The notes beneath the pieces are model-generated. The model was not told the DNA's origin. It did not search any database and saw only the letters and a list, made by a program, of their open reading frames with translations. A DNA stretch of 64,000 nt, taken from Dehalococcoidia bacterium. Its GTDB lineage: Bacteria > Chloroflexota > Dehalococcoidia > E44-bin15. The number at the start of each line of letters is the position of its first letter. Position 1 is the first letter of the stretch. The translations under genes were made by a program, and so were the position numbers. Where the stretch lies: NCBI GenBank assembly GCA_035528575.1, contig DATKYK010000029.1, positions 14,824 through 78,823 of the forward strand. Reading direction: 5' to 3'. Below are positions 1 through 63,087 of the stretch, piece by piece.

Positions 1-2
1 TG

Positions 3-275
3 GTGAGCGGGCTTTTCGGGCTTCCTGAAGATAGCGTTGTCGCTATCGTGGTTGGCTTTTTGCGCAAGGATGTGGCTATCGGGCTGCTGGCCCCGCTGTC
101 ACTGAGCGCCACGCAACTGGTGGTGGGCTGCGTCGTGCTGACCATGTTCCTCCCCTGCATCGCTGCCTTCGTTGTCCTGGCCAGGGAGCTTGGCGTTAAG
201 GGCTTGCTGGCTGCCATCGGAATAATGCTCGCCGCCACCGCAATTGTAGGCGGGCTTTTGAACCTGGTTTTATAG
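3..275 (+). CDS. feoB: Ferrous iron transporter FeoB, C-terminal fragment (5' end outside window)
   Basis: C-terminal hydrophobic segment with the conserved FeoB-type pattern ...FLPCIAAFVVLARELGVKG... (YIPC.AT.A.I.RE.G.K-like). The ORF runs off the left edge of the window. Confidence 0.5.
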   Translation: MSGLFGLPEDSVVAIVVGFLRKDVAIGLLAPLSLSATQLVVGCVVLTMFLPCIAAFVVLARELGVKGLLAAIGIMLAATAIVGGLLNLVL

Positions 276-291
276 CGTGCTGGCTTAGGAC

Positions 292-331
292 GCTTGACTT
301 TTCCTCCTGATGGCGGTTTGATTTATCAGTG
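292..331. repeat. Left copy of ~40-bp imperfect direct repeat (gcttgacttttcctcctgat + 20 nt) flanking the AT-rich island
   Basis: Twenty of the first 20 nt and about 35 of 40 nt overall are identical to 5413-5452. It lies 17 nt after the feoB stop codon. Confidence 0.8.
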
Positions 332-431
332 TTTTCGCAACAGCCCCCAAGCGATGCCCGTAAGCTTTTATTTATCCATATTCTTGTCACGTGATAAAAT
401 GTCCAATCCACTTATACCTACGCTATATAGT

Positions 432-460
432 TTGACATACAAATAACCGCAGAGTATTAT
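432..460 (+). promoter_or_regulatory. Sigma70-type promoter candidate (TTGACA-17-TATTAT) for the 513 ORF
   Basis: TTGACA at 432-437, a 17-nt spacer, TATTAT at 455-460, and the RBS gagggaa just before the ATG at 513. Confidence 0.45.
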
Positions 461-512
461 TCTCTCACACCATGAACTACCTCGGCATTCTGAAAAGAGA
501 TGAGGGAATACA

Positions 513-773
513 ATGACACAACAAAAGTGCACTGATGCTAGCGATGTCGAATTTGCCCTTAAGAATCATTTCGAGAGTAAATATGGAAAGAAACTACTAA
601 ATGTTAAATTTAGAAGTGTGTATTATCAAGGAGGCTCTGTTAGAGATGTCTGGGAAGCTGATGGTGATATTATTCTCAAAGGATTTCTTTGGAGAAAAAA
701 GCGTCAATCATTCCGATATCAAGTTGACCCAAAATCAGGCAAAATAATCGGATACCAAGAAGTAGGGCGATAG
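513..773 (+). CDS. Hypothetical small protein (86 aa), island-encoded
   Basis: ORF with an RBS in an AT-rich region. No recognisable motif. Confidence 0.4.
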   Translation: MTQQKCTDASDVEFALKNHFESKYGKKLLNVKFRSVYYQGGSVRDVWEADGDIILKGFLWRKKRQSFRYQVDPKSGKIIGYQEVGR

Positions 774-864
774 TGCTGAAATAATACAAATTAAGCTCAG
801 CTAGGCGGATTTGGCAAATCAAATAATATTCCGACCCACTTTTTCAGCGAACTGACATATAATC

Positions 865-893
865 TTGACATATATAACCTGGGGGGTTATAAT
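865..893 (+). promoter_or_regulatory. Strong sigma70-type promoter (TTGACA-17-TATAAT) giving a near-leaderless transcript of the toxin operon
   Basis: TTGACA at 865-870, a 17-nt spacer, TATAAT at 888-893. The ATG at 899 is only 5 nt downstream of the -10, which implies a leaderless mRNA. Confidence 0.5.
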
Positions 894-898
894 GTATT

Positions 899-1255
899 AT
901 GCATTTTATTGAGTATTATACTGATAAAAGGGGGCGGCAACCGGTAGTTGAATGGCAAAACCGGCTTGATATAAGGAACGACCATATAATCGATAACAAG
1001 ATTAAAAAGCTTATGGAGAATGGTCTTAAGGTTCTAGATACCAATATGTTTGATGTAATACAAGGCGATGATTCAGATTTTTATGAGTTGAAAGGAGGTC
1101 TAAATAAACAATGTAGGATTGCCATTTATCATGATAAAAGGAGAAATACCTTTATTCTTCTACATGGGTGGTTGAAGAAGAAAGGGCGAGATGAGCAAAA
1201 TATAGAACAGGCTCGCACTATTCTACATAGGTATTTATCAACACAAGGAGAATAA
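899..1255 (+). CDS. Type II toxin, RelE/HigB superfamily (Gp49-like / HI1419 'addiction module killer' family)
   Basis: 118 aa. The C-terminal motif NTFILLHGWLKKKGRDEQNIEQAR is typical of Gp49/HigB-like toxins. It is followed 1 nt later by an XRE antitoxin gene. Confidence 0.65.
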   Translation: MHFIEYYTDKRGRQPVVEWQNRLDIRNDHIIDNKIKKLMENGLKVLDTNMFDVIQGDDSDFYELKGGLNKQCRIAIYHDKRRNTFILLHGWLKKKGRDEQNIEQARTILHRYLSTQGE

Positions 1256-1256
1256 T

Positions 1257-1742
1257 ATGATGGTTAGGACACCAATACAAGAAATAAAGGAGAAGCTGCT
1301 AGATTTTGAGTACAGAAAACGCTTTGGGGCTGCCGACGCAAAGAATGAGTTTGCGATTACTCTAGCGACGGTCCGTAGGGACTTGAATATGACCCAACAG
1401 GAGCTAGCAGATAGATGTGGTGCAACACAACCATATATCGCTAAGTTGGAAGGAGGGGAGGCAAACCCAACGCTGGGTACTATAGGTAATATGCTAGCAG
1501 TAATAGGTTGTCGCCTTGCAATGGATGCAAAGCCACTGCTGCAAGATGTACCAGCACCGCCGTCTACAATTACGGTCAGTCAAAGCAGCACTGTTGCTGA
1601 CACAGGAACACTCCCATTGGATTGGGAATGTATTTACGAGGCAAATGGTTCTGGTGGCTATACTGCGCCGCTGACATCAGGCAGGTATCCAATAACCGCC
1701 GCTAAATCAGATTCCCCTGCTTTAGTGGGAGGATATAGATAA
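1257..1742 (+). CDS. XRE-family HTH antitoxin (HI1420/HigA-like) with a ~65-aa low-complexity C-terminal extension
   Basis: HTH signature LNMTQQELADRCGATQPYIAKLEGGEANPTLGTIGNMLAVIG. The tail is rich in Pro/Ser/Thr. The 1-nt gap after the toxin gene indicates an operon. Confidence 0.65.
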   Translation: MMVRTPIQEIKEKLLDFEYRKRFGAADAKNEFAITLATVRRDLNMTQQELADRCGATQPYIAKLEGGEANPTLGTIGNMLAVIGCRLAMDAKPLLQDVPAPPSTITVSQSSTVADTGTLPLDWECIYEANGSGGYTAPLTSGRYPITAAKSDSPALVGGYR

Positions 1743-2161
1743 TGAACGTATCTAAAGAAATGCAGGAACTATTCACCAATGAGATCGATTTTGTTATTGA
1801 GCGAATGAAAGGGACAAATAGTGCACCCGAGAAAATGTATTTCTTTAGTGGTACATATGCATGCGCCCTAAGGATTATTAATATCGAGTTTGATGCAGAA
1901 CTAGCCTTTATTCATCACGTTCTACAAAGTGCACATCAAATGATAGATGCACGGATAACAAGACCACAGCAGGGGCAAGATAGACCTATTGGAATACCTG
2001 AGAAGTTGTTTGACAGACTTGAAGATGCTTTGAAGGAAATGTTAGCAAGGATAAAGAAGGGTGATGAGACGTATCCCGTGCTTCAGACAATCTTTAATCT
2101 AGCCTATAGCACAACGGGCAATGGCTATTATCTATACTTGAAGGGTTTGTTGCCTGTATAG
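1742..2161 (+). CDS. Hypothetical protein (139 aa) translationally coupled to the antitoxin gene (TAATG overlap)
   Basis: Its start overlaps the stop of the upstream gene (ATAATGA). There is no recognisable domain and the region is AT-rich. Confidence 0.5.
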   Translation: MNVSKEMQELFTNEIDFVIERMKGTNSAPEKMYFFSGTYACALRIINIEFDAELAFIHHVLQSAHQMIDARITRPQQGQDRPIGIPEKLFDRLEDALKEMLARIKKGDETYPVLQTIFNLAYSTTGNGYYLYLKGLLPV

Positions 2162-2290
2162 CAATCTACCCTATCTGAAAACCTGCTATTTGAACATTCT
2201 TATCTCAACGACTATATCTTATGCATTACGGTTACAACTCCCTGTGCGGGCGACATTTCATCATTATCCCAACGGAGTCTTGTAATACTT

Positions 2291-2357
2291 AAAGCTATCA
2301 CCAACGCTGACAGAGCGAGTATATCGCTGCACCATTTCCAGGCTTTCCCACCTGCCT
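2291..2357. repeat. ~60-bp repeat element, copy A, upstream of hicB
   Basis: Core gctgacag..gtatatcgct.gcaccat.tccaggcttt.cccacctgcc is about 88 % identical to 3118-3182. Confidence 0.7.
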
Positions 2358-2379
2358 AAGTCCCCCTATACTGCATAGA

Positions 2380-2407
2380 TTGACAAATATCCTATTGACA
2401 ATATAAT
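2380..2407 (+). promoter_or_regulatory. Sigma70-type promoter candidate (TTGACA-16-TATAAT) for hicBA
   Basis: TTGACA at 2380-2385 and TATAAT at 2402-2407, about 70 nt upstream of hicB. Confidence 0.45.
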
Positions 2408-2478
2408 GCAAGGGTGTGGTTTTGCATGGTTTAATTTGGTTGTTCATGGCTTCGTTAGGTAAAACAAAAGGGGGTTGA

Positions 2479-2838
2479 ATGAAAGGGGAGAAGCGACAGG
2501 CTACAGCGGTCAGTCCGAAGGGTTATGTACACCTAACTCTTGAATTCTGCAAAGAAGGCAAGAGATGGACTGCCTGTTGTGAAGAACTTGGCACCGCTAC
2601 TTTTGGTCGCTCACTTCCTGAAGCAGAGGAAAAGCTTAAGGAAGCTGTTCTACTTCATCTGAACGCTATTGAGGCTGTCGGTGAGCGGGAACGATTTTTT
2701 AAAGAAAATGGCATAATTCTTCATCAGACCAAACCCAAATCACTCACAATACATATAACTCCCAACCCAAATGTATTTATTCAAGCCCTTGTCCAGCCTA
2801 TCCCTCAAAGTCCTTCCAAGGAGCGTGTCCCTGCCTGA
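2479..2838 (+). CDS. hicB: HicB-family antitoxin (UPF0150 / RNase H-like fold)
   Basis: The motif ...EGKRWTACCEELGTATFGRSLPEAEEKLKEAV... is typical of the HicB N-domain. A HicA gene follows 43 nt downstream. Confidence 0.6.
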   Translation: MKGEKRQATAVSPKGYVHLTLEFCKEGKRWTACCEELGTATFGRSLPEAEEKLKEAVLLHLNAIEAVGERERFFKENGIILHQTKPKSLTIHITPNPNVFIQALVQPIPQSPSKERVPA

Positions 2839-2881
2839 GTATACCCAGATTCCTGCTATTTAAGGCAAGCAATTAATTAGA

Positions 2882-3091
2882 TTGCTTAAGAAAGACGGCT
2901 GGGAAGCTCTCAGAAAAGCCAAGCATGGTATTGCTTTATCAAAATCCTTCGGTGACCGCAAACGAGTCACAGTCATTCCAGATAGTCGAGCATCACTCCC
3001 TGATGGCACTTTATCGGCAATACTTGGTGTCAAGCAAACAGGACTTGGTAGGGCTGAATTACTCAACTTGATTATTAAACGTGGGCTTTAA
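2882..3091 (+). CDS. hicA: HicA-family toxin (YcfA-like mRNA interferase); probable non-ATG start
   Basis: The in-frame upstream residues give LIRLLKKDGW, a HicA hallmark. Later residues RKAKHG...K fit the family. An upstream TAA at 2861 limits the ORF, so a TTG or ATT start is used. Confidence 0.55.
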   Translation: MLKKDGWEALRKAKHGIALSKSFGDRKRVTVIPDSRASLPDGTLSAILGVKQTGLGRAELLNLIIKRGL

Positions 3092-3117
3092 CCCAAAGGC
3101 GGCTTATAGAACCTCAG

Positions 3118-3182
3118 GCTATCTTCAAAGCTGACAGGATAGGTATATCGCTTGCACCATCTCCAGGCTTTTCCACCTGCCG
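3118..3182. repeat. ~60-bp repeat element, copy B, immediately after the hicA stop
   Basis: See copy A. It starts 27 nt after the hicA stop codon. Confidence 0.7.
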
Positions 3183-3448
3183 AAAAAGCCAACTACCTTC
3201 ATAAAAGCCCCTTTTCAGCCCCATACTGGCAAAGCCGCCCTTTATAACGCTGTAACTACTTCATGAACACCTACGTAGAGCCATAGACGCCGCCCACCTG
3301 GCTACATTTTATCGGTTGTGTTGCTGTCCTGCATGTACCGGACGAGTAGGTTCTCTTGCATTTAGGTGGTTATGTTCCCCTTGATTGTGGTTGACATATT
3401 ATCCTCATTACTATATTATCCTATATCATCAAACAAAAGGAGGGCTTT

Positions 3449-3619
3449 ATGACTAGTGATGTAATAACCCCTGATATTGCCATACTTTGGGCAGCCACTG
3501 AATTAACTAAAGCATGGGTAGGTACTGGGAAAATAGACCCTAGCACAATTGTTAATACCTTTAATACAATCTATACTGGTATATCAAATACTGCAACGTT
3601 TACTCCTTTTTCTCAGTAA
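3449..3619 (+). CDS. Possible small ORF (56 aa) with a strong RBS (aaaggaggg)
   Basis: A Shine-Dalgarno sequence lies 4 nt before the ATG, and TTGACA-17-TATTAT is about 55 nt upstream. It falls below the ORF-track length cutoff. Confidence 0.3.
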   Translation: MTSDVITPDIAILWAATELTKAWVGTGKIDPSTIVNTFNTIYTGISNTATFTPFSQ

Positions 3620-3799
3620 GGACGCCCGAAAAACTCTCTTGACAGAGCCATTGAATCTCATCAAGTTCTAGCCCTTTGCCTTTCAGAAGTAGAAAGATGT
3701 CTAATCTCTCTTGTATCGCTTCAGGTATTCTCACATCAGAATTATTATCCATTATTATAACCTCCTCTTTACTACACTAATTAATCCTTATACAGGAAC

Positions 3800-4624
3800 T
3801 TAATCTTTACTTAGATACTCCACTAATCCTATCCATGTATTAAATGGCAACTTTAACCCAGCATATACCGCTGGTGTTTTACCCTTCAATGTCATATGTG
3901 GTCTTAGGAAGTTATAGTGAATGATAAAACCTTCAGAGATAGCTATGGCTGAATCTAATGTCTTTAATCCCCTAAAAACCTTCGTGCGCTCTTTGACGGT
4001 TCCCTGGAATCTCTCGATTATGTTAGTATTTACTTCTGCCGTAAGTCCCTTAGCCCTTATATGCTCACTATCAGCACCAAATACTCTCTCAATAGCATCT
4101 GGATACGCTGGCATACCATCCGAGACTATTTGCTTCGGTAGACCTATAACACGGTTGTACGCTTCAGACAATACCGCTACGGCAGACCGCATATCACGGC
4201 TTTTAGTTATATGTGTAGCTAGTAAAAAGCGACTTCTCGAATCTATAACGTCCCATAGCCAGAGTTTTCCCCCTGCTACAGAAATCATCGTCTCGTCGAT
4301 GACCCACTGCCACGATGTTTTTACCTCTAGTTTATTCAGGATACGCTCAGACTTCTTAGAATACTTAATAATCCAACGCCACACTGTAGCAGGGTCAACA
4401 ATGATTCCCTCAGTAGCGACAAGGTGTCTACTAATATCTGCCAGCGATAACCCATCATAGAATAAGCCTAGCGATTCGCCGATTGTCTCAGTAGTGAACC
4501 GCATTCCTTCGGGTGCTAGAGTACCAGCGAATTTACGCCCGCAAGCTTTGCATTTGTAATACTGAGTACCTGCCTTAAAGCCGTATTTCATGGTGCTGGG
4601 TGATTGGCAGAATTTACATTTCAT
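3800..4624 (-). mobile_element. IS6-family (IS26/IS240-like) DDE transposase with an N-terminal zinc ribbon
   Basis: The protein aligns with IS26 Tnp across the catalytic core: TVWRWI.KY, W.IDET.I.V.G.W.W.VIDS, SDGMPAY. The N-terminus has CxxC...CxxC. Terminal inverted repeats could not be recognised. Confidence 0.7.
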
Positions 4625-5274
4625 TTAATATTCATTCTCCAATATTTACCAAATAACCTTACCTCACGAATCTTAATATCACTTACAGACCAATGATAAT
4701 TTGGGCGTGGTTCAATTATCTCAACAACAATTAAATAAACAGGTTCTGGAGTATCAATTGTAAAAGATATATTATGTCTTAACCCAGAGCATTCCTGCTC
4801 CCATTCCTTTAAAATACCTGATGCCCCATTAAGTATTACCCTCCACTTCTTTGGATAATCTGGTGAATCCTTACCATGCATAAAAACAACTTTATCTATT
4901 ACACGAGCTTTGCCATAATCCCAATACCTTATCTTTTTAAATACCTTTGAGGTAGCCTTTAAAATGTAATATATAATTTTGTTAGGACTTTTACGTATAT
5001 CTAAAACGAAAGTATCACCTGTTTCTTGTTGTCTATGGGTTCTCCATTTAGTAGCTTCTTTGCCTTCAAGATAATCTGTACTATTAAGTAAATCAGCCCT
5101 CCAATGTGTCCTATCAGGCCATAATAACCTAGAAATAAATATCCACAAACCTATAACAACTGCAAAAGAGCTAGAAACAATAATAGTTATCATTCTAGGC
5201 GTCCCCGCTAACCCTTCGATTAGTGCGCTTATAACAACACCAGCAACACACATCTTGAGTATTGTCATTAACAT
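4621..5274 (-). CDS. Hypothetical membrane-anchored protein (2 N-terminal TM helices); its stop overlaps the transposase start
   Basis: It overlaps the tnp ATG by 4 nt (ATGA). The region is AT-rich and the protein has no recognisable domain. Confidence 0.45.
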   Translation of the reverse strand: MLMTILKMCVAGVVISALIEGLAGTPRMITIIVSSSFAVVIGLWIFISRLLWPDRTHWRADLLNSTDYLEGKEATKWRTHRQQETGDTFVLDIRKSPNKIIYYILKATSKVFKKIRYWDYGKARVIDKVVFMHGKDSPDYPKKWRVILNGASGILKEWEQECSGLRHNISFTIDTPEPVYLIVVEIIEPRPNYHWSVSDIKIREVRLFGKYWRMNIK

Positions 5275-5412
5275 ATTTATATAATCTTCCCTGCCCTATA
5301 GGTATGAGTATACCAATCTTAAATAAAGAGGCAATTACTCCCGTTAAGAGGAGTATACCACCACTATAAAATTGCCTCAACCCCCTACGCAAGAGAACCG
5401 ACGAGTATAAAA

Positions 5413-5452
5413 GCTTGACTTTTCCTCCTGATAGCTGTTAGATTTGTCCGTG
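5413..5452. repeat. Right copy of ~40-bp imperfect direct repeat flanking the island; contains a putative -35/-10 for the downstream surface protein gene
   Basis: It matches 292-331. It also carries TTGACT-17-TTAGAT upstream of the surface-protein start. Confidence 0.8.
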
Positions 5453-5476
5453 TCTCGGTTCAAGCTCCTACAAAAG

Positions 5477-7012
5477 ATGGCTCTACGATTCGCAACATCT
5501 TTTATTCCTCTAACAATTATAGCATTGCTGACGGTAAGCACCCTTTCCGCTGGAGCCGTGGATAATCTTTTGCAGAACCCAGGCTTCGAGTATGGACCTT
5601 CGGGCTGGTTAAGCTATGGTGGTGGCGCTCTCTCCGTAGTTGGGTCACCAGTCCACAGCGGAGATTTTGCCGCTGCCTTCGAAAGCGACACCGCAACAAC
5701 AAAGTGGATTTATCAGGTCGTATCTGTATTGGGGGGAGAAAGCTATACCTTTTCTGGCTACGCCATAAAAAATGATCCTAATATTGAGACAATTTTCCTA
5801 CGGATCTCCTGGTACCAGAGCCTAGATGGCTTCGGAACCGAGATGGCTCACCACGACTCCCTCACTGTTCTGATAGATGACGAGCCCCAATACCGTCTTT
5901 TAACTACTGATGAGCTTACCGCTCCAATAGATGCACATTCGGCACGAGTTAAAGCGATACTGGAGCCGGTCTCCGACGTGGCAGCAATTGCCTATTTTGA
6001 CGATCTACGCTTCGAAGGGCCTCCGCCAGCTACTCCTACTCCCACGCCGACACCGACTCCTACTCCAACACCAACACCAACACCAACACCAACACCAACT
6101 CCTACACCCACACCCACTTCTACTCCTACTCCTACCCCAACTCCTACACCTATCCCTTCGCCAACGCCTACGCCCACACCAACCCCTACTCCCACGCCTA
6201 CTCCTACGCCTAATCCCACTCCTACTCCTACTCCTACTCCAACACCAACCCACAACGGCACGATCGCCGATATTGGCGATGTGCTGATTAATGAGATCCA
6301 ATACGATTCTCTGCAACCGGGTGTTGATGCTTCCTTCGAGTGGGTGGAGCTCTTTAACTGCACACAAGAGCCTGTTGAGCTTGAAGGATGGAGAATCAGC
6401 GATAACTATGGCAGCGACCCGGTTCCCTCACTACACCTGCCCCCTCAGGAATTCGCGGTAATCGCCGCCTCTCAGGACTTTTACACCAGCTTCCCTGACT
6501 TCACGGGCACCATAGCCTTCATAGACGATAGCCGTGTTGGCAACGGATTGAGCAATGACGGGGACTGCCTCATCCTTGAGGACAGTGCGGAAACTGTTAT
6601 TGATGCTATGTCCTACGGCGATGATAACAGTATATTGCTGCCGCCATGCCTGGATGTGGCCGAAGGCCACTCCCTGGAGCGCCAACCCGCCGGCTTTGAT
6701 ACCGACCAGGCCAGCGACTTTACGGATAATTCAGAGCCCACCCCAGGCTACGGCCTTTCTCCCTCCACATCCTCACCCACACCCACCATGACACCAACGC
6801 CAACAGCGGGTCCCACCGCTACGCCCACTACTACACCGACAGCGACACCTACAACCTCACCTCCCAGCAGTCCCACCCCTGAGGGCACAACGCCGCCGCC
6901 TCAAGAATCCCCGGCTCTCTCTGGAATGGCGTTGCGCGCTATTCTCATTACAGCAGCATTAGCCTTCTTTGCCGTTGTTTTCTGGTTTGGAATGAGAAAG
7001 AGGAGAAAATAA
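5477..7012 (+). CDS. Cell-surface protein: signal peptide, CBM4/9-like domain, PT-repeat linker, Lamin-tail domain (LTD), second S/T/P-rich linker, C-terminal TM anchor with basic tail
   Basis: [11 protein letters not shown] is a CBM4_9 start. (PT)n spans about 60 residues. INEIQYD...EWVELFN...EGWRISD is an LTD signature. The C-terminus is a hydrophobic helix followed by RKRRK. The start is probably MALRF at 5477 rather than the TTG at 5444. Confidence 0.7.
6023..6250. repeat. Tandem hexanucleotide-like repeat (CCNACN)n encoding the PT linker
   Basis: Runs of ccaacaccaacaccaacacc and actcctactcctac appear directly in the DNA. Confidence 0.85.
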
Positions 7013-7118
7013 TTGCCTTGCACCCCTCTCTGGGATATAATTACGCACTAGGCCAATGCCGAAGCCATCGATAATCACCATAGATGGTTGAGATTTTAGA
7101 TATGATGGAGGAAAGCTG

Positions 7119-7763
7119 ATGCCCTGGTTTTATTATCTGGGGACAATGCTCATGAAGCTCCTGCTCTTCCTTCTGGCCCGCTGGCAGGTCAAAGGGAAGG
7201 AAAATATACCCGCCCGGGGACCCCTTATCGTGGTGGCCAATCACCTAAGCATCGCCGACCCCCCGCTGCTCTCGGCAAGCATTCATCGAAGGATCATCTT
7301 TATGGGCAAGGAGGAGGCATTTCACAATCCAGTCTTTGGCCCGCTAGCGCGCGGCTGGCGAGCCTTTCCAGTGCGCCGCGGCGTATTCGATAGGGTAGCA
7401 CTCCGCCGTGCCGAGGGGGTATTAGCGGAGGGTCAGGTATTAGGGATGTTCCCTGAGGCGATGAGGAGCCAAAGAGCGCAACTGCAGCAGGGCTTGACAG
7501 GTACCGCCCTCATCGCCCTACGAAGTGGTGCCACTATACTCCCCGTGGGCATCATCGGGACGGAAAAAATTGAGGGGATAAGCGTTATCTTCCGCCATCC
7601 CGCCATAATCGTAAACATCGGTGAGCCCTTTAAACCTCCCTCCATAGATGGCAGGTTAACCAAGGCTCACCTAGCCGTGGCCACTGATCTTATAATGGGG
7701 CGGATTGCTGAGCTTCTCCCACAAAGCTATCGAGGGTATTATAAAGATGGAAAAGGCTGCTGA
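7119..7763 (+). CDS. plsC: 1-acyl-sn-glycerol-3-phosphate acyltransferase (LPLAT family)
   Basis: The H(x4)D motif VVANHLSIADP and a FPEG-like motif are present. The length is 214 aa. Confidence 0.75.
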   Translation: MPWFYYLGTMLMKLLLFLLARWQVKGKENIPARGPLIVVANHLSIADPPLLSASIHRRIIFMGKEEAFHNPVFGPLARGWRAFPVRRGVFDRVALRRAEGVLAEGQVLGMFPEAMRSQRAQLQQGLTGTALIALRSGATILPVGIIGTEKIEGISVIFRHPAIIVNIGEPFKPPSIDGRLTKAHLAVATDLIMGRIAELLPQSYRGYYKDGKGC

Positions 7764-8120
7764 AAAATATATCGGGGTTAACTCTTTACATTCCATCCCC
7801 GACGATGCCTAAATACTATCTAATGATAATAGAGCAGCATGCCTGAAAGGAATCGAATCGTGAAACAAAAAGTGACACAAAAATTTGGTATCTATCTGAA
7901 CACCAAAGAACTGAAAGTGGCTAGGATCAATTCCCCCCACTGGATCCCCTCCGAGCCGGATTGGGTATTCCTTACGCCAGAGGTTAATATGACCCTGCTC
8001 AAGATCCGCCAACTGGCTGAAGAGCAGAAGCTTGTGAGCCAGCCCGATAAGCTGGTCTGGATCTAGCATTTGTATCCGGGGATACTTGCTTGGCTAACAG
8101 ATCTAGGTGTTATCTGGGTG

Positions 8121-34747: not shown

Positions 34748-35239
34748 TTGGTGATAAAAAATAAAATGAGCGCGAGCTTTATTGTGGATACCAATGTAGG
34801 CAAACTGGCACGCTGGCTCAGGATGCTGGGCTATGACACCCTTTTCATCAACGAAATCGATGACGATGAGCTTATAGCCATCGGCCTAAAGGAGAAGAGG
34901 GTGCTACTCACCAGGGATACCCAGATCATGCTGCGGCGGGTGGTCACCAGCGGTCGGCTGAAGGCTATTCTCATCCAGAGCGATGACGTCAAGGAGCAAT
35001 TGCGCCAGGTGGTGCGGATGATGAGGTTAGACCAGAAACGAAAATTCAGCCGCTGCGTGGAGTGCAACGAGCCGCTTGTCCCTAAAAGAAAGGATGAGGT
35101 ACAACAACTGGTGCCCCCCTATGTCTTCAAGACACAGTCCAACTATTACCAGTGCCCCAGTTGCCAGAGGGTCTACTGGCGGGCCACTCACTGGCAGCGG
35201 ATGAACCAGGAGCTGGAGGTGATCATGGGAGCGGAGTAA
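34748..35239 (+). CDS. Mut7-C RNase domain protein (DUF82; PIN-like plus zinc ribbon)
   Basis: An N-terminal VDTNVGKLARWLRMLGYD motif and a C-terminal CxxC...CxxC. Confidence 0.65.
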   Translation: MVIKNKMSASFIVDTNVGKLARWLRMLGYDTLFINEIDDDELIAIGLKEKRVLLTRDTQIMLRRVVTSGRLKAILIQSDDVKEQLRQVVRMMRLDQKRKFSRCVECNEPLVPKRKDEVQQLVPPYVFKTQSNYYQCPSCQRVYWRATHWQRMNQELEVIMGAE

Positions 35240-35357
35240 TGAGGGAGCCGGCGCGCCAGTTCGCCGAGCGAGGGGTGGCAGAGATTAAGCGAACCGTCTT
35301 TCTGCTTCACCGCCCTTAGGAGCGTAACAATTGCTGGAAATGCTCTACCAAACGTTT

Positions 35358-36071
35358 CTACCGCCTTGCTAACACCTTAGGGTCTTCCGTATGTAGAGAC
35401 TCCAGCTTTCTAGCCAGACGAACTCCTATTGGTCGAGAAGCCTCATCATTCTTGAACAAATAGTATTGCTTTTGCATTGACATATTGATTCCTTCTTCTT
35501 CCGTGAATAACACACCGCTTAGTTTCTGATAGCGCTTTGGGTCCGCCTCAATCTCTTGTCGGATATAGGTGAAGGCATCTCTCACGTCAATATGTCGTAC
35601 TTGTATAGTGCTACTCCAATAAACTACTATATTTATTTCTCCATACGAAAAATGACTCAATTCGCCCCCAATTTTCGATATTATATCCTGTGCGCTATTA
35701 GATGCAACAAAACCTGCCTCCGATTTCTCCCAATTATCGTCTTCTTCATTCGGGCGTCTTCTTGTTACTTCAAAATAGACAGTCTGATGGTTGTAATCCG
35801 CTTTTACGTCTGGCCCCTTAGAGGAATATTCAATGTGGATTTGTGAAAATCCATTCCTGCTGAGAATGCGAGCGAATCGCCCCTCCTTCGTAATATCCAG
35901 GTACTCTTGTCGGGTAGCAACTCTTTCTGATAATATACGAACAAATGCATCTATGCCTTGGACACCACAGCTTTGAAGTTCCGTAACCAGTTCCTTTATA
36001 CGTCTTATATCAAAATCTTCGTAGTCAGCTTGGACCATTTTAATAAACAACTTATTCATCATATGCCCCAC
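35358..36071 (-). CDS. Hypothetical protein (237 aa) in a locally AT-rich patch
   Basis: The ORF has atypical, lower GC than its neighbours and no recognisable family. Confidence 0.45.
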   Translation of the reverse strand: MGHMMNKLFIKMVQADYEDFDIRRIKELVTELQSCGVQGIDAFVRILSERVATRQEYLDITKEGRFARILSRNGFSQIHIEYSSKGPDVKADYNHQTVYFEVTRRRPNEEDDNWEKSEAGFVASNSAQDIISKIGGELSHFSYGEINIVVYWSSTIQVRHIDVRDAFTYIRQEIEADPKRYQKLSGVLFTEEEGINMSMQKQYYLFKNDEASRPIGVRLARKLESLHTEDPKVLARR

Positions 36072-41917: not shown

Positions 41918-42344
41918 TTATACTCCCACCGAATATGGATTATCATTTTAGCCCATATATCGTGTAGTAGCAACCCTACAAACAATAAAAAGAAAGGATA
42001 CAATTCCAGCCCTGAGAATAACTATTGAATAATGGTTTAGTGGGTATTAATACAGGTTCAGTTTACGATACCTATACCACCATTTCCCCTGAGGAAGGAC
42101 TTAAGATAGTCCACCATTAAGCCTTGGCCCGAATCCATAAGACCAGGTTTTAGCATTGCGCCCGAGCGAGACAGTGTCTTTCTCGCTGAGAATCGACCCA
42201 CACGATAAATGCCTATAAAACCATCATAGTGCTGGCCAGGGTTAAAAAGACGTCGATTACAGTTACTATTCCAAAGTTCAGCAGGCTAATGAAATCCGTA
42301 GCTATCAGTCGAGCAGGAAAACCTCCGCATAGGTTGTAACTAAC

Positions 42345-45300
42345 CTAGTCTGAAAGCGGTACTTTCCCTTTGCATTCAGGATAGCGGCTGCATACGTGGA
42401 ATCTGCTACCGGCATTCGGGCCCTTTTTTGCTGTCATTACGACTGTGGCAGAGCCGCATTTTGGACACCTGATATCACCTGTCGTTACCGCAACTCGTTT
42501 GCGGTTGCGCAGACCATCGGCCAGGCTGTAAATCACCGGAATAACCACGAGGGTCAATAGTGTTGAAGTGAACAGACCACCGATCACTACCACGGCCAGC
42601 TCAGCAGCGATAATAGTGCCCTCTCCGACTCCAACAGCCAGTGGTACCATAGCTATCATTGTGGTTAACGCCGTCATCAGGATCGGTCGCAGCCTTGTTT
42701 GTCCGCCTTCAATCAGGGCATCGTAGGCGCTCATACCACTCTTCTGCAATTGTACCACCAAGGCAATGAGGACGATTGCGTTGGTGAGCACTATGCCCAC
42801 GAGCATCAGTATACCCATCATTCCCGACATACCTAGGGTATAACCAGAAATCAGTAGACCCAAAATGGCGCCAATAGATGCCAGTGGCAGGCTGACCATG
42901 ATAATAAGGGGATTCAGTATTGATCTCATTGAGATGACAAGTATCAGCAAGGCGATGAATATTGCGGCGATTATGGCGATGGCCATGCTGGAGAAGCCAC
43001 TCGCCATCTCCTCAAATATCCCACCTATCTTTACATCTACGCCCTCAAGTCCGGGGGTAGCCAGTACCTCATCGATTGCCTCATTAACCTGGCTGTTAAC
43101 TGCGCCCATATCCTTTTCATCAACGGTACCCGATATAGCGGCTGAGAACTGCAGATCATAGTGGCTGATATGGGTGGGACTCAGTGGCAGATCTACATCC
43201 GAGATATTACCCAAGGTTCCAAATACCGGAAAGCCCATCGGCAGCGCTTCTGTCAACGTTGTGGGATCATCGGCAAAATACAGCTCTCCGGAAATCCCCT
43301 TCAGCGTAATGCCATAGCTATCACTGTCTATGCTTACCATAACATCGTCAGAGCTAGTCCCCGATGTCAAGAGATACTTCTCTTTGTACGTTTCATTAAT
43401 CTGCTCATCGCTCAGCCCCATGCCAATCATTTTGGATATATCTAGATCAATGACTAGTGTAGGCACAACCAAAGTGAGCTGGGTCTCGAGGTTCGATATA
43501 CCCTCAATATCCAACAGCCTTTCATAAAGCAATTCAGCAGCCCGGTTTACCTCATCAGAGCTTTCTCCTACAACCGATAGATCGACACCAGCTGCGCCCA
43601 TCATACCGGCGTCCGATTCCTCGCCAGTGAGAACCTTGACGAAATCGAATCCCACCCCCTCCCTTAAATCATCGAGGCCCTCATCTAGCGCAAGACGTTC
43701 CCTTTTCTCATCCGTATTCGGTTCTAGCATGATTGTGATCTCAGCGGTGTTGTCACCACCACCCTGCATTGTGCTTATGATGCCCATCAGCGATGATGAC
43801 GTCCCTATAGTTGACCAGTAGTACTGCATGCCTTGAACCTGGTTATCGATTACTGACTCAACCTGTGCGACAACATCACTGGTGTCTTGGAGCTCAGTCC
43901 CGGGTAAAAGTTCAATCTCTACCATTAGCATAGGCATACCCATACTGGGTAAAAACGAAGTCCCGATCACAGGGATAAGCATAATACTGCCAATAAATAG
44001 AATGAAGGCGATTACCAGGGTGATGGCCCGGTGGCCCAGAGCCCACTTAAGCACAGAAACGTACCCTCTCTGATACCAGCTTTGACGTGGTTTGGTCTTC
44101 TCTTCGCCGACCCTATTTCTTTGTTTGCCAACGAACCACTTCGAGAAGGCGGGTACTACTATCAGCGCTACCAACAGTGAGGCTATCAATGCAAACGTTA
44201 TTGTGAGAGCAAACGGAACGAAGAGCTCCCCCACGATGCCGCCAACAAAGGCCAGCGGCAGGAAAATGGCTACGGTAGCTAGAGTAGCGGATGTGATCGG
44301 GGCTGCTACCTCTCTCGAGCCGCCAATTGCAGCTGCTCGAAAGTCCTCCCCGGCCTTCATACGGCGATATATAACCTCCGTGACCACTATGCTGTTATCA
44401 ATCAGACGACCAACAGCAATCGCCATAGCACTCAGGGTCAGGAGATTAATGGTAATGCCGGCAAAGTACATGACCAGAAAACCGATCAATACACTCACTG
44501 GAATAGACATTGCTGTCACAAGCGAAGCGCGGAAAGCCATCAAGAAGAGAAAGACAATAAATATTGCCAAAATGAAGCCAATAATCGCCATCAGTAGCAA
44601 CTGGCTTACGCTATCCTCAATGAACTCCGATTGGTCTAAAAGTGGAACGACTGTGATATCCCCTTGCAGATCCGCCTCGATCTCACGTGACTTTTCCATT
44701 ACCGCATTTGCTGTGTCGACGGTATTTGCATCACTCTCTTTCATCACGAAGATCGCCACACTCGGCTCTCCGTTCGTTTGCGTGATAGCCTTGTTCGGAG
44801 ATGGCCCGGTTTCCACACTGGCTATGTCGTCTAGGACTACACCGTCCACACCCATAGGTGCATTCCTGATAGCATCCAGGGAATCAAATTGCCCATTCAT
44901 TCTGAGCAACGCTACCATCTGATACAAAGAGACATTTGATGCCACTAGCTGTTGAGGATCGGGTGAGATGATAACCCTTTCCTTATCACCACCCTCAACT
45001 TCCACACTGAAGACTCCCTCAACTTGTGCAAAAAACGGAATAAATTGATCCTCTGCAATATTTTTCAGCTCGTACTGGGAATAGTTACCACTGAGGCTCA
45101 GGATCACCAGGGGCATCTGGCTGAGGTCGATAGGTATAATCTGGGGATTACCTTCTAACTGCCGGACTTCATCAGGAAGATCGAGACCATCAATGGCTTC
45201 CGCTATGGCACTGTTCGTGTCATCCATATTGGTGCCGTATTCAAAAGTCATAAATAGAACAGAAATTCCACTTGCCGACGTAGAGGATATGTGCTTTAGA

Positions 45301-45572
45301 CCCCGCCCTTCAAATCGCTCCCAGATGACATCTTCAATGGGCACCGTCACTTCGCTCACAACCGCTTCTGGTAAAGCATCCGGATAAACTGTTATTGCAC
45401 TGATAAAGGGGAATTCGATGTTGGGTATCAGCTCCGTCTTAAGCTGAAAAGTGCCCCAGATTGCGGCACCCGTTAATAGGACTGCTAATAAGATCGTTAA
45501 CAGGCGGCTGCGTATACCTAGCTTAGTTAGATACCACATACTCTCTCCCTTCAGGTCTTGGACTAGAACCAC
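42345..45572 (-). CDS. RND-superfamily efflux transporter (AcrB/MMPL-like) with a C-terminal topoisomerase-type C4 zinc ribbon
   Basis: Twelve TM helices in two halves with large extracytoplasmic loops. The C-terminus is CPKCGS...FHVCSRYPECKG. The start is likely MWYLTK at 45539. Confidence 0.75.
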   Translation of the reverse strand: MVLVQDLKGESMWYLTKLGIRSRLLTILLAVLLTGAAIWGTFQLKTELIPNIEFPFISAITVYPDALPEAVVSEVTVPIEDVIWERFEGRGLKHISSTSASGISVLFMTFEYGTNMDDTNSAIAEAIDGLDLPDEVRQLEGNPQIIPIDLSQMPLVILSLSGNYSQYELKNIAEDQFIPFFAQVEGVFSVEVEGGDKERVIISPDPQQLVASNVSLYQMVALLRMNGQFDSLDAIRNAPMGVDGVVLDDIASVETGPSPNKAITQTNGEPSVAIFVMKESDANTVDTANAVMEKSREIEADLQGDITVVPLLDQSEFIEDSVSQLLLMAIIGFILAIFIVFLFLMAFRASLVTAMSIPVSVLIGFLVMYFAGITINLLTLSAMAIAVGRLIDNSIVVTEVIYRRMKAGEDFRAAAIGGSREVAAPITSATLATVAIFLPLAFVGGIVGELFVPFALTITFALIASLLVALIVVPAFSKWFVGKQRNRVGEEKTKPRQSWYQRGYVSVLKWALGHRAITLVIAFILFIGSIMLIPVIGTSFLPSMGMPMLMVEIELLPGTELQDTSDVVAQVESVIDNQVQGMQYYWSTIGTSSSLMGIISTMQGGGDNTAEITIMLEPNTDEKRERLALDEGLDDLREGVGFDFVKVLTGEESDAGMMGAAGVDLSVVGESSDEVNRAAELLYERLLDIEGISNLETQLTLVVPTLVIDLDISKMIGMGLSDEQINETYKEKYLLTSGTSSDDVMVSIDSDSYGITLKGISGELYFADDPTTLTEALPMGFPVFGTLGNISDVDLPLSPTHISHYDLQFSAAISGTVDEKDMGAVNSQVNEAIDEVLATPGLEGVDVKIGGIFEEMASGFSSMAIAIIAAIFIALLILVISMRSILNPLIIMVSLPLASIGAILGLLISGYTLGMSGMMGILMLVGIVLTNAIVLIALVVQLQKSGMSAYDALIEGGQTRLRPILMTALTTMIAMVPLAVGVGEGTIIAAELAVVVIGGLFTSTLLTLVVIPVIYSLADGLRNRKRVAVTTGDIRCPKCGSATVVMTAKKGPNAGSRFHVCSRYPECKGKVPLSD

Positions 45573-45721
45573 CCTTGGTAGCTTTGGTCATTACTGTAGA
45601 CCTTCTTAAGTGCATATATTTCCCCATCCGGCGATAGTAGTAGTAAACATAAATGCGCACATTATGTAGTTATCCTCTATCACGCGGAAACACTTCGCAT
45701 GTGGGTGCATGCTGTTGAAAC

Positions 45722-46291
45722 CTAGCGTTCCGTCTCTTGCAAGCCCCTAACCACTTTCTCCATGAGCATTAAAAACATAGTCTGTTCCTCGGCCGTCAGC
45801 TGGGAAAGCATTTGCCGGAAACGCTGTACCATATATCTCTCAGTAGTCTGGTAAAGCTCCCGTCCACCATCTGTGAGAGCTACCCGAACAACCCTCCTAT
45901 CTTCCGGGTCGGGTAACCTCTGTGCGTACCCGTTATCCACAAACCAGTCGACCATCCGCGTTGCACTGCTGAACGGCACCGATAGTGCATGGCTTAATTC
46001 ACTCATTGTCATGTTAGTTACCCGATAGAGATTGAAGCTTATACGACAGAAAAGGTTGTAGTTTATGAAGCGATGAGGTTTATCTCCGATATGTATCCCA
46101 TCAAGCAGATATTGCAGTTTCTCAAGATCTTTGGGCAACATAGCATTGAACTTTATCTCTATCTGTAGCAAGTCCTGTACAAGACTAGCTATCCGGCCAT
46201 CGTAAACCTGTTGCTGATAATCATCTGTCATTAAATTCCCCGTGAAATATTTCCATAATGGAATAATATTACGGTCCTGTTGAATTGTCAA
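45722..46291 (-). CDS. MarR-family transcriptional regulator
   Basis: A winged-helix motif SELSHALSVPFSSATRMVDWFVDNGY...DRRVVRVALTDGG. Confidence 0.75.
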   Translation of the reverse strand: MTIQQDRNIIPLWKYFTGNLMTDDYQQQVYDGRIASLVQDLLQIEIKFNAMLPKDLEKLQYLLDGIHIGDKPHRFINYNLFCRISFNLYRVTNMTMSELSHALSVPFSSATRMVDWFVDNGYAQRLPDPEDRRVVRVALTDGGRELYQTTERYMVQRFRQMLSQLTAEEQTMFLMLMEKVVRGLQETER

Positions 46292-61797: not shown

Positions 61798-62736
61798 TTA
61801 CTTCTGATGCCGTAGCAACTCTTCCAAATCTAAGGGATCGCCCTTAGATGATTCCCTCTGAAGTGTTATCGCTCCATCAGGACATTTATCTTCGCAAATG
61901 CCGCAGCCCATACACTTATTAAAATCTACGACAGCCTTATTACTATCCTCATCCATTCGTATTGCATTGAAATTACAGATGTCTAAACAAATACCGCAAC
62001 CACTACAGTTATCACCTATTCGAGATACATAGCCTGAAGGGGCAATGAATGGAACTTGCCCCTCCAGTATGTTCCACATCTGCACTCCGACGCAACAGCA
62101 ACTGCAGCAGTTGCAGATAGCAATAAGCCGCCTGCCCAGTTCTTTCTTGAATTCCGCAGTGTGGAGAAAGCCTTTCTCATGCGACGTCTGAAGGATGTGG
62201 ACCGCTTCCTCCTGAGATATCTTACGGAACTTAGGATTCTCCTCCGCAATAAAAGAGGTATATGGATCACCAACAAATAGACAAACCTCCATGGGGGGAG
62301 GAAGACAGGGATTTTTGGAAATGGCACGGCAGGCACATTCCCCAACGGCAATTGAATGCGGGTTGTTGATAATAATATCTCTAGCCTGTTTGTAATGCAT
62401 TACCCTATCGGGTGTTTTTATTCTTACATCTGCCTTCTGGGTAACCAACTGAATCGCATCCCTCAATTTAACTACTTTAAGATGATAAGTGCTGGTATCG
62501 TGAGTCGCCGCAGTCTCACTGATTCGCCATACAGCGGCTTGGATCATCGCATCGACATCATCATCCAGCTTTGTCTGAGGTCTCTCTGCGGGAAGTCCTC
62601 CTGCTTGAGATAAATGATAAACAAAGTGGTCCGGATATTTGAGGAATATGTATGCGTGATAAAAGTCATTCTTCTCATCCTCAGGGAACATCTCATAGAG
62701 TGCCTTGGTTATCTCGTTATGCATAAGCTTCTCCAT
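61798..62736 (-). CDS. Cys-rich Fe-S protein with C-terminal 2x[4Fe-4S] ferredoxin domain
   Basis: CSGCGICLDIC and CMGCGICEDKCP motifs, plus an N-terminal Cys cluster CNCCSCCC. Confidence 0.6.
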   Translation of the reverse strand: MEKLMHNEITKALYEMFPEDEKNDFYHAYIFLKYPDHFVYHLSQAGGLPAERPQTKLDDDVDAMIQAAVWRISETAATHDTSTYHLKVVKLRDAIQLVTQKADVRIKTPDRVMHYKQARDIIINNPHSIAVGECACRAISKNPCLPPPMEVCLFVGDPYTSFIAEENPKFRKISQEEAVHILQTSHEKGFLHTAEFKKELGRRLIAICNCCSCCCVGVQMWNILEGQVPFIAPSGYVSRIGDNCSGCGICLDICNFNAIRMDEDSNKAVVDFNKCMGCGICEDKCPDGAITLQRESSKGDPLDLEELLRHQK

Positions 62737-62781
62737 TCGCGTTTAAAAAAAGTTCTGATGTGTACAATTCAAACTCCTCTT

Positions 62782-63087
62782 TTACTGGGATATTAAGCTT
62801 TGAATCCCCGCCATCTGCGCATTTATCAACTCACCGGCGGCCAAGATTTTACCGTAGGCTCTATCATTGTATTCACTCTCACCACTTCTTACAATTGACA
62901 TATCCCCCAGAAATCGGTCTAGGTAGCATGTGAGACTTAGGAGCTGTGAGGTGCTATTCTTTGGGCTTGACTGTTGCATTAACATATCCGTAAAGCGCTG
63001 GACTTTACTGCTCTGATGTGCACCTATGAAATAGGCGCTCTTTAACAAATCACCAGTGACATTCTCTAATTGAGAAAACCCTCTCAT
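62782..63087 (-). CDS. Hypothetical protein (101 aa)
   Basis: ORF only. It lies in an AT-richer patch. Confidence 0.3.
   Translation of the reverse strand: MRGFSQLENVTGDLLKSAYFIGAHQSSKVQRFTDMLMQQSSPKNSTSQLLSLTCYLDRFLGDMSIVRSGESEYNDRAYGKILAAGELINAQMAGIQSLISQ

Follow-up and report, generated by a model that had tools for sequence, protein, structure and literature searches.

In a Dehalococcoidia bacterium (Chloroflexota; assembly GCA_035528575.1), the interval between feoB and a gene for a surface protein with an LTD domain is occupied by an AT-rich island of about 5.1 kb, flanked by direct repeats, which is not one integrated element but a layered array of gene cassettes with an insertion sequence (IS) nested in it. 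The stretch analysed, called the window here, comprises 64,000 nucleotides (nt) of contig DATKYK010000029.1 (positions 14,824 to 78,823), and coordinates are those of the window unless a relative is named. An earlier note on this DNA, made from the sequence alone, had seen in the repeats the attL and attR sites of a site-specific integrative element that had lost, or never encoded here, its integrase. Much of that proposal stands, namely a foreign insertion, repeated ends with an identical core, an empty site with one copy in relatives, a promoter in the repeat and a repeat that is not dispersed, whereas the single site-specific element does not: of the 5,121 bp, 2,051 are a later IS, and what remains is pieced together from three or more cassettes that occur in other combinations elsewhere. 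We consider it probable, with moderate confidence, that the feoB-LTD interval is a chromosomal hotspot of gene transfer, built stepwise by repeated recombination between strains. Its mechanism and direction we infer from what is directly observed, namely the layout of the island, relatives with an empty site, cassettes shared in mosaic fashion, an inserted IS and the lack of a detected recombinase gene.

Relatives were collected by a scan of full FeoB proteins, with one genome per species, which gave 76 loci, and array variants by a scan of metagenome contigs with a 22-mer of the conserved right end, together with look-ups of cluster members, which gave about nine; handles such as L006 denote these loci and contigs.

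A promoter repeated at both ends of the island

The earlier note had described 40-mers at 292-331 and 5413-5452 that share GCTTGACTTTTCCTCCTGAT exactly and then 15 of the next 20 nt, as the sequence indeed reads; a repeat search returns a direct repeat of 41 nt with 88% identity (36/41, the first 20 exact).

292..332, + strand: left repeat copy, a promoter of the LTD type (-35 TTGACT, 17 nt, TTTGAT), now facing the first cassette
5413..5453, + strand: right repeat copy, the predicted working promoter of the LTD gene (TTGACT, 17 nt, TTAGAT)

Two matches are all that the 20-mer has in 64 kb at up to three mismatches (expected 0.00, from 100 shuffles), and the 40-mer has no third copy in the window, so that it is not the dispersed repeat that the earlier note had thought would speak against its proposal. 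That the repeat carries the promoter of the downstream surface-protein gene, as also proposed, is borne out by conservation across lineages from the -35 TTGACT to about +1; in the intergenic alignment of relatives this promoter reads CTTGACTTTTC, a 17-nt spacer, and TTAGAT or TAAGAT. The repeat being a promoter, one might take its copies for two generic promoter motifs that mark no boundary, a reading effectively refuted by their scarcity in 64 kb, by the absence of the repeat sequence from the four other strong promoters of the island, and by an indel relative to L006 that is bounded exactly by the repeat. Those four promoters are of the sigma-70 type and as near to consensus as the earlier note had implied in calling them canonical (12/12 at 865-893 and 2380-2407, 11/12 at 432-460 and 3391-3419).

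The empty site that the earlier note expected, with a single repeat copy between feoB and the LTD gene, is present in L006, L011, L018, L023 and L024, where the LTD gene begins about 80-190 nt past the feoB stop, and the island is thus an insertion/deletion polymorphism bounded by the repeat. L006 has a feoB with 90.5% nt identity to that of the window. The same island lies on three ENA contigs (L001 shows 26 mismatches over 17 kb), and no strain-level empty site was found in the source samples, where contigs with an identical LTD protein or PlsC carry the island or are too short to tell. Within the repeats the content of guanine plus cytosine (GC) falls as sharply as had been claimed, to 40.6% at 333-5412 against 53.1% in the rest of the window, whose lowest value elsewhere is 48.6% (215 segments of 5.08 kb), and GC at third codon positions is 0.25-0.40 in island genes versus 0.61-0.67 in plsC, ppdk and dnaG. 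Other stretches of lowered GC, at 35001-36000, 42001-46000 and 62001-63000 (0.45-0.50 versus about 0.53-0.56), might be acquired segments.

The two copies differ in history. The right one is orthologous to the single L006 copy (92.5% identity over 67 nt from the -35 onward, into the gene) and is chimeric, positions 1-20 being those of the left copy (L006 agrees at 17/20) and positions 21-41 agreeing with L006 at 20/21 versus 16/21 with the left copy, the pattern that a crossover inside the 20-nt identity would produce. The left one is identical in L098 despite a different upstream spacer there. If the promoter, alone or with the LTD gene, had been duplicated in tandem on the spot and incoming DNA had later replaced the gene of the upstream copy, the repeat would be older than its cargo; LTD-type genes do evolve fast here, and the left copy is a complete -35/-10 promoter. 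We nevertheless regard this as very improbable, since no significant trace of LTD coding sequence or 5' untranslated region (UTR) lies past the left copy, the 3' half of the left copy is closer to the functional L011 allele (18/21, counted by eye) than to the right copy (16/21), and all outgroups have a single copy. Alignment past the 41-mer within the window is no better than that of shuffles (96 of 500 score as well), and the sequence downstream of the left copy has no significant match in the LTD 5' regions of 13 relatives (z <=2.6). A continuation of the repeat into the LTD 5' UTR and first codons, suggested by one alignment (A1), was likewise not significant against shuffles.

Cassettes, terminal element and nested insertion sequence

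Between the promoter copies lie three cassettes, a non-coding terminal element (TE), which occurs a second time in part, and the IS.

429..814, + strand: o86 cassette; promoter 432-460; open reading frame (ORF) 513-773 of 86 amino acids (aa), assigned to no family; ends in the boundary motif
793..814, + strand: cassette-boundary motif, AAGCTCAGCTAGGCGGATTTGG
865..2263, + strand: higBA-like three-gene cassette; promoter 865-893; Gp49/HigB-like gene 899-1255; HTH_3 gene 1257-1742; o139 1742-2161; 103-nt spacer
2264..2380, + strand: partial TE copy, corresponding to TE positions 1 to about 150 minus an internal deletion; left member of the duplicated pair that encloses hicBA
2380..3091, + strand: hicBA cassette; promoter 2380-2407; hicB 2479-2838; hicA 2825-3091
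3088..3348, + strand: non-coding TE of about 260 nt, conserved as the right end of arrays
3341..3348, no strand: left 8-bp target-site duplication, GACGAGTA
3349..5399, - strand: IS6-family IS of 2,051 bp; left inverted repeat GGTTCTCTTGCATTTAGG at 3349-3366, right inverted repeat at 5382-5399
3800-4624 (-), 3449-3619 (+) and 4621-5274 (-): ORFs of the IS, namely transposase, o56 and o217
5400..5407, no strand: right 8-bp target-site duplication, GACGAGTA

The o86, higBA-o139 and hicBA cassettes each recur elsewhere at 92-97% identity, with other neighbours and other left junctions. The o86 cassette is 93% identical over 386 nt to L099/L100, where its neighbours differ, and the left promoter copy together with o86 matches L098 (92.6% over 612 nt). 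The higBA-o139 proteins are 92-97% identical in L090 and L091-L093 and more diverged in L088/L089 (o139 96%, HTH protein 69%, with higB split in L088); the module is followed directly by the TE in L088-L091 and L093, and the TE is complete wherever the contig reaches that far (L088-L090). For the unit of partial TE, hicBA and TE (2284-3348), identity is 92.2% over 1,068 nt to L083/L084, and 92% also to L094. Different contents, about nine in number, thus separate feoB from LTD-plsC in related genomes, among them the following.

L090: feoB, caspase-like gene, o123, higBA-o139, TE, promoter, LTD gene
L084: feoB, PEMT-like gene, HNH gene, partial TE, hicBA, TE, promoter, LTD gene
L094-L096: TE positions 5-149, hicBA, TE, promoter, LTD gene
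L098: feoB, L006-like spacer, left promoter copy and o86, then other cassettes
L099/L100: o86 cassette amid yet other neighbours
L008, L086: NYN, SHOCT, caspase-like and methyltransferase cassettes

In these terms the window combines a feoB spacer like that of L088/L090, a left copy and o86 like those of L098, higBA-o139 as in L090, hicBA as in L094, the IS, and an LTD gene like that of L006, its LTD allele being 81% identical to L006 at the aa level versus 39-63% to TE-bearing relatives.

The two toxin-antitoxin modules announced by the earlier note are confirmed in part. In the higBA-like module the HTH_3 partner scores above threshold and the Gp49/HigB-like partner below it (18.4 versus 23.9 bits), and as regards hicAB, homologues of hicB (55-65% identity) are named HicB by JGI, while the HicA_toxin match is below threshold and hicA has a premature stop. 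This stop is an in-frame TAA at 2861-2863, which replaces Ser at codon 13 of an ORF that is intact, with 88 aa, in L096 and L084; hicB is intact, and the hicA toxin gene has, on its sequence, probably been inactivated or lost its N-terminal part. Tight packing, with a 1-nt gap and then a 1-nt overlap in ATGA, links the HigB-like gene, the HTH gene and o139, a trio that five other lineages also have as one unit; o139 may belong to the module as its third component.

The TE adjoins the -35 of the LTD promoter in L007, L084, L085, L086, L088-L090, L094 and L095 (85-90% identity), and window positions 3158-3348 have their counterpart, at 89.5% identity, in the 191 nt that directly precede the promoter in L007. 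The right junction, at which the -35 follows the end of the TE, is identical in all TE-bearing arrays (at least seven). The hicBA cassette sits within the TE, about 100-150 nt of which are duplicated on both sides of it, and an undeleted version of the partial copy, TE positions 5-149, is found in L094-L097. At positions 1777-1931 of L087, a diverged TE (model positions 107-260) lies directly 5' of the -35 of an unrelated, flavoprotein-like gene; homology stops at ...GAGTACAAAA, immediately before TTGAC, and the TE thus ends at the -35 hexamer at two unrelated loci. For the TE, RNAalifold predicts a possible 3' hairpin, with two to three compensatory changes in an alignment of five sequences; folded as single strands, the TE (TE-a, TE-b) and the promoter copies alike do no better than shuffles (z -0.9 to +1.8), and an Rfam scan of positions 1-8000 returned one chance-level match only.

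The core of the boundary motif, YAGGCGGATTW, occurs once in the 64-kb window and recurs at cassette junctions of L008, L084, L086, L088, L090-L093, L098 (with two substitutions) and L099/L100, the switch from shared to unshared sequence falling inside the motif. In related arrays most cassette junctions are marked by the motif AGCCAGGCGGATT, sometimes followed by a hairpin, GGGGGCTACC...GGTAGCCCC; its positions in four relatives are these.

L008: 7188 and 9235
L084: 3628 and 2911 (-)
L086: 3290, about 1355, and 1232 (-)
L090: 4489 and 5006

The switch from shared to unshared sequence takes place in one of three short conserved strings (GCTTGACTTTTCC, which is the promoter core; AGCCAGGCGGATT, the motif at 793-814; and the TE), and no core sequence common to the three was found.

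Left junctions vary. In the window and L098 they consist of the 41-nt promoter copy and in L086 of 37 nt; in L088/L090 only AAGCTTGAC is repeated (9-11 nt), and in L007, L008 and L084 no repeat core was found, L007/L008 showing at most a weak resemblance to the promoter (alignment A1). An element that moves as one unit with constant ends is not what these arrays suggest, as cassettes recur separately and left junctions differ between arrays. In L086, moreover, the terminal 240 nt of feoB recur within the array, ahead of an array of the L008 type (the feoB copies, on the - strand, are at 4313-4552 and 5808-5921 and hardly differ, by eye, in their final 108 nt or so), which shows that what was inserted is a chromosomal piece of another strain, not an element with fixed ends. 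The feoB end in L098 (positions 1-75) contains a short tandem duplication (AAACCTGATTTT AAACCTGGTTTTATAG) that combines L007-type and window-type endings and adds four codons, on its sequence a probable recombination scar. Independent assemblies break after the boundary motif (the start of L003/L104 equals 813), at one TE-a position, or in the promoter core; the breaks concern the L003/L104 start, the ends of L093, L096 and L098, and the end of L085, and fit repeated sequence or strain heterogeneity at those points.

The nested IS carries, as the earlier note had recognised, an IS6 transposase (NCBIfam NF033587, 142 bits versus a cut-off of 125; Pfam DDE_Tnp_IS240, PF13610, E 9e-20). Its inverted ends match at 11/11 and then 14/18 positions, and its edges read ...CCGGACGAGTA then GGTTCTCTTGC... 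at 3349, and ...GCAAGAGAACC up to 5399 then GACGAGTATAAAAGCTTGAC. L007, L083/L084, L086, L088 and L089 have the target, ...GGACGAGTAYAMAAGCTTGAC, without interruption, L085 and L090 have variant uninterrupted junctions, and the IS is absent from seven relatives. Given the inverted ends, the 8-bp duplication and the intact target in relatives, 3349-5399 is a later IS6-family insertion into the junction of TE and promoter. A second copy, on the unrelated contig L102 (about 31-2248, reverse strand; transposase 84% identical at the nt level), shares these ends and is flanked by an 8-bp duplication of its own, TATTTCCT; it measures about 2.2 kb and its passenger ORFs differ from those of the window IS, so that the lineage, judged by these two copies, seems to swap cargo. 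L102 was reached through a cluster member, no other genomic copies of the IS with identical proteins being on record. Within the window IS, o56 has its own 11/12 promoter, and o217 is a membrane-type ORF that overlaps the transposase start. A DDE transposase, short inverted ends that start with GG and an 8-bp target duplication are traits that 3349-5399, and it alone in the island, shares with the IS6/IS26 family, and its ends resemble that of IS257, which we take to be GGTTCTGTTGCAAAGT. Typical IS6 elements are about 0.7-0.9 kb long with a single ORF, whereas this one has 2.05 kb and two extra ORFs (three in all).

Proposed stepwise recombination and its rivals

The genes on either side of the island, feoB upstream (confirmed on the longer contig L001) and a surface-protein gene downstream, are those that the earlier note had named.

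3..275, + strand: 3' end of feoB, the last 90 codons, with stop TAG at 273-275; left core flank of the hotspot
5474..7012, + strand: LTD/CBM-like surface-protein gene (Pfam LTD, E 4.5e-14); right flank of the hotspot, hypervariable

On L001 the full feoB encodes FeoB_N, Gate and FeoB_C domains, and the 4.7 kb upstream hold genes for a CTP-transferase-like protein, a ferredoxin, a methyltransferase, CvpA, Fur, FeoA and FeoB. The 3' part of feoB is 83-93% identical at the aa level in relatives. Along L001 1400-3157, feoB is itself a mosaic, its 5' half going with L007 (93-97% identity) and its 3' half with L006 (92-97%), a pattern of identity along the gene that indicates recombination within this core gene. 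The LTD protein combines LTD and CBM-like domains, Pro-Thr repeats and a hydrophobic tail at the C-terminus; it is 39-81% identical to its relatives, as against 81-93% for the neighbouring FeoB C-terminus and PlsC, and its allele type is uncoupled from the adjoining array (homologues in L006, L007, L084, L088, L090 and L094). This hypervariability with uncoupled alleles suggests diversifying selection or allele replacement. The long Pro-Thr tracts at 6003-6278 and 6774-6881 show periods of 12 and 18 nt; they are linkers of low complexity, and their length may vary.

Under the reading that we favour, recombination between strains at a hotspot, the array would consist of small accessory cassettes, each of one to three genes behind its own strong sigma-70 promoter, brought in with DNA from the same locus of related strains. 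Incoming DNA would be anchored by homology on one side, in the promoter core, the TE, the LTD gene or plsC, and joined on the other at very short homology or illegitimately; such joining would correspond to homology-facilitated illegitimate recombination. Each event would leave a truncated duplicate of the anchor to the left of the new DNA. Three structures fit such a scar: for the array as a whole, the left promoter copy of 41 nt; for hicBA, the partial TE; and in L086, the 240-nt feoB copy. The right promoter copy would keep the LTD gene expressed while the left copy reads into the first cassette, the IS6-family element would have transposed later into the TE-promoter junction, and recombination between the promoter copies could delete the whole array and restore the L006 state. 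Between the feoB stop and the -35 lies a gap of no more than about 20 nt, and selection alone would therefore be expected to confine tolerated junctions to that gap and to favour arrays that bring an LTD promoter with them or retain one.

Several points weigh against this reading. Breakpoints fall in strings of 9-22 nt (promoter core, GCGGATT motif, -35), and since RecA-dependent recombination works poorly on less than about 25-30 nt, the recurrent use of these strings might betray a dedicated recombinase. At least seven arrays agree to the nucleotide in their right junction, as a fixed att site would have it, although common descent also explains the agreement, and the 20-nt identity followed by an allele switch in the right copy is the trace that a reciprocal crossover in a core would leave. 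No source was identified for the 96 nt at 333-428, between the left copy and the o86 promoter, and we know of no natural transformation or other route of DNA uptake in these uncultured organisms.

Site-specific recombination in a revised form would take up some of these points: the promoter copies would be attL and attR, the boundary motifs further sites, the integration core would lie within GCTTGACTTTTCC, and a recombinase encoded elsewhere would act in trans, on the models of integron cassettes, Xer-dependent modules or cis-mobilisable elements. The 41-nt repeat with its 20-nt exact core and chimeric right copy speaks for it, as do the empty site in a close relative, the same right junction in arrays (at least seven) whose LTD promoter alleles differ, the 13-22-nt motif shared by cassette junctions with the shared/unshared switch inside it, and the mostly common orientation of the cassettes. 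We hold it to be unlikely, though worth keeping in view, for no recombinase is found in about nine array variants or their flanks, left junctions are inconstant, a feoB fragment lies inside the L086 array, promoter core, boundary motif and TE have no common core, the TE and the promoter copies fold no better than shuffles, and no circular junction is found in the collected loci or viral contigs.

These negatives rest on several searches. No integrase or recombinase was detected among the island ORFs (Pfam, NCBIfam, PADLOC), none in ten cargo proteins tested from related arrays (Pfam), none in the gene content of the 4.7 kb upstream, none within 58 kb downstream, and none across the array variants; a regular expression for the tyrosine-recombinase box, a crude screen, found nothing in the long ORFs of the window. 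A single site-specific integrative element finds no support here: no recombinase was detected in any variant or nearby, and no tRNA target, the window containing no tRNA or tmRNA gene. The junction predicted for a circle, in which the end of the TE is joined to the 3' half of the left copy (...GGACGAGTATAAAAG-CTTGACTTTTCCTCCTGAT-GGCGGTTTGATTTATC), is absent from 104 collected loci and from viral contigs, all of them assembled sequence, and neither the TE 22-mer nor the junction string occurs in the viral contigs. A plasmid or phage origin was considered and set aside, the island having no blastn match in PLSDB or INPHARED. In a complete 1.47-Mb genome, tried as a model of the full system, the hicAB homologues are a solitary pair between housekeeping genes.

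A Campbell-type insertion, in which a non-replicating circle, looped out between direct repeats in a donor with cassettes and one repeat copy, re-inserts after transfer by a single homologous crossover, in the promoter or the TE, and duplicates sequence as it does so, would give the single-crossover topology of a promoter duplicated around the array and of TE positions 1-149 duplicated around hicBA, and the switch after position 20 in the chimeric right copy. Homology of 41 nt, or of 9-11 nt in L088/L090, is very little for this, however; the model accounts neither for L007, L008 and L084, whose arrays lack a left repeat, nor for the feoB fragment inside the L086 array, and the circle junction was not seen in the collected loci or viral contigs, all of which makes this course of events quite improbable.

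The junctions can also be read as those of a cassette platform, in which self-promoted cassettes, delimited by the 13-22-nt motif (AGCCAGGCGGATT...) and closed by the 260-nt TE docking onto a -35, are moved by a putative recombinase encoded elsewhere. We give this proposal little credence; were it true, the platform would be functionally integron-like without IntI, attC or promoterless cassettes, and the TE of L087 would be a second docking site.

Known systems and biological meaning

Many hotspots of horizontal gene transfer lack mobile elements, and homologous recombination is frequent in their flanking core genes (Oliveira et al., 2017, PMC5635113); minimal mobile elements of Neisseria are described in PMC3787668 (citing Saunders & Snyder, 2002, and also Snyder et al., 2007). 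As in those systems, the same two conserved flanks hold different gene sets in close relatives here, dedicated mobility genes are lacking save an incidental IS, feoB is mosaic, and the cargo is rich in toxin-antitoxin-type and accessory genes. Unlike in them, breakpoints also lie inside the interval, at short conserved strings, the flanking promoter is duplicated, and a conserved 260-nt TE always adjoins that promoter.

Integrons and clusters of attC sites lacking integron integrases (CALINs) share with the island small, mostly co-oriented cassettes, a recurring boundary sequence, an array without integrase and toxin-antitoxin cassettes. The island differs from them in having no detected IntI, no R''/R' (GTTRRRY) cores and no attC-like hairpin, and in cassettes that each carry a near-consensus promoter in the window (11/12-12/12), integron cassettes being typically promoterless. 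A search for IntI with attI between CvpA-Fur-FeoA-FeoB and LTD-PlsC found none. attC sites were rejected as boundaries, which show no paired RYYYAAC/GTTRRRY cores (by eye) and, at some of them only, a simple GC hairpin; the literature collection searched yielded no papers on integrons or attC in Dehalococcoidia.

Direct repeats around integrase-less cargo, a one-copy empty site and accumulation of cargo in tandem recall integrase-less islands with att repeats, whether cis-mobilisable, formed by tandem accretion or of the tycheposon type (bioRxiv 10.1101/2020.12.28.424599). Set against such islands, the target here is the promoter of a protein gene instead of a tRNA or tmRNA gene, no related integrase-bearing element was found, and the ends vary between occurrences. 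The pdif modules of Acinetobacter plasmids are reportedly small, often of toxin-antitoxin type, without a recombinase of their own, bounded by short conserved sites and found in varying combinations. Small recombinase-less modules, short conserved bounds and varying combinations would be points of likeness, to go by what is reported; a dif-like site (two 11-bp arms, 6-bp spacer) is not evident here, the array is chromosomal, and orientation is direct, not alternating.

For the calling of genomic islands the case counsels caution, since a long direct repeat with an empty site resembles attL/attR, yet the content is a layered mosaic with a nested IS. Should a dedicated recombinase underlie the breakpoint strings of 9-22 nt, it would represent a new cassette system. 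The interval also illustrates how accessory genes can be gained and lost in the small genomes of uncultured Dehalococcoidia, whose routes of gene transfer are little known: entry would take place through a fixed gap of about 20 nt by the promoter of a surface-protein gene, and each gain would be buffered by duplication of the promoter, through which the downstream gene stays expressed.

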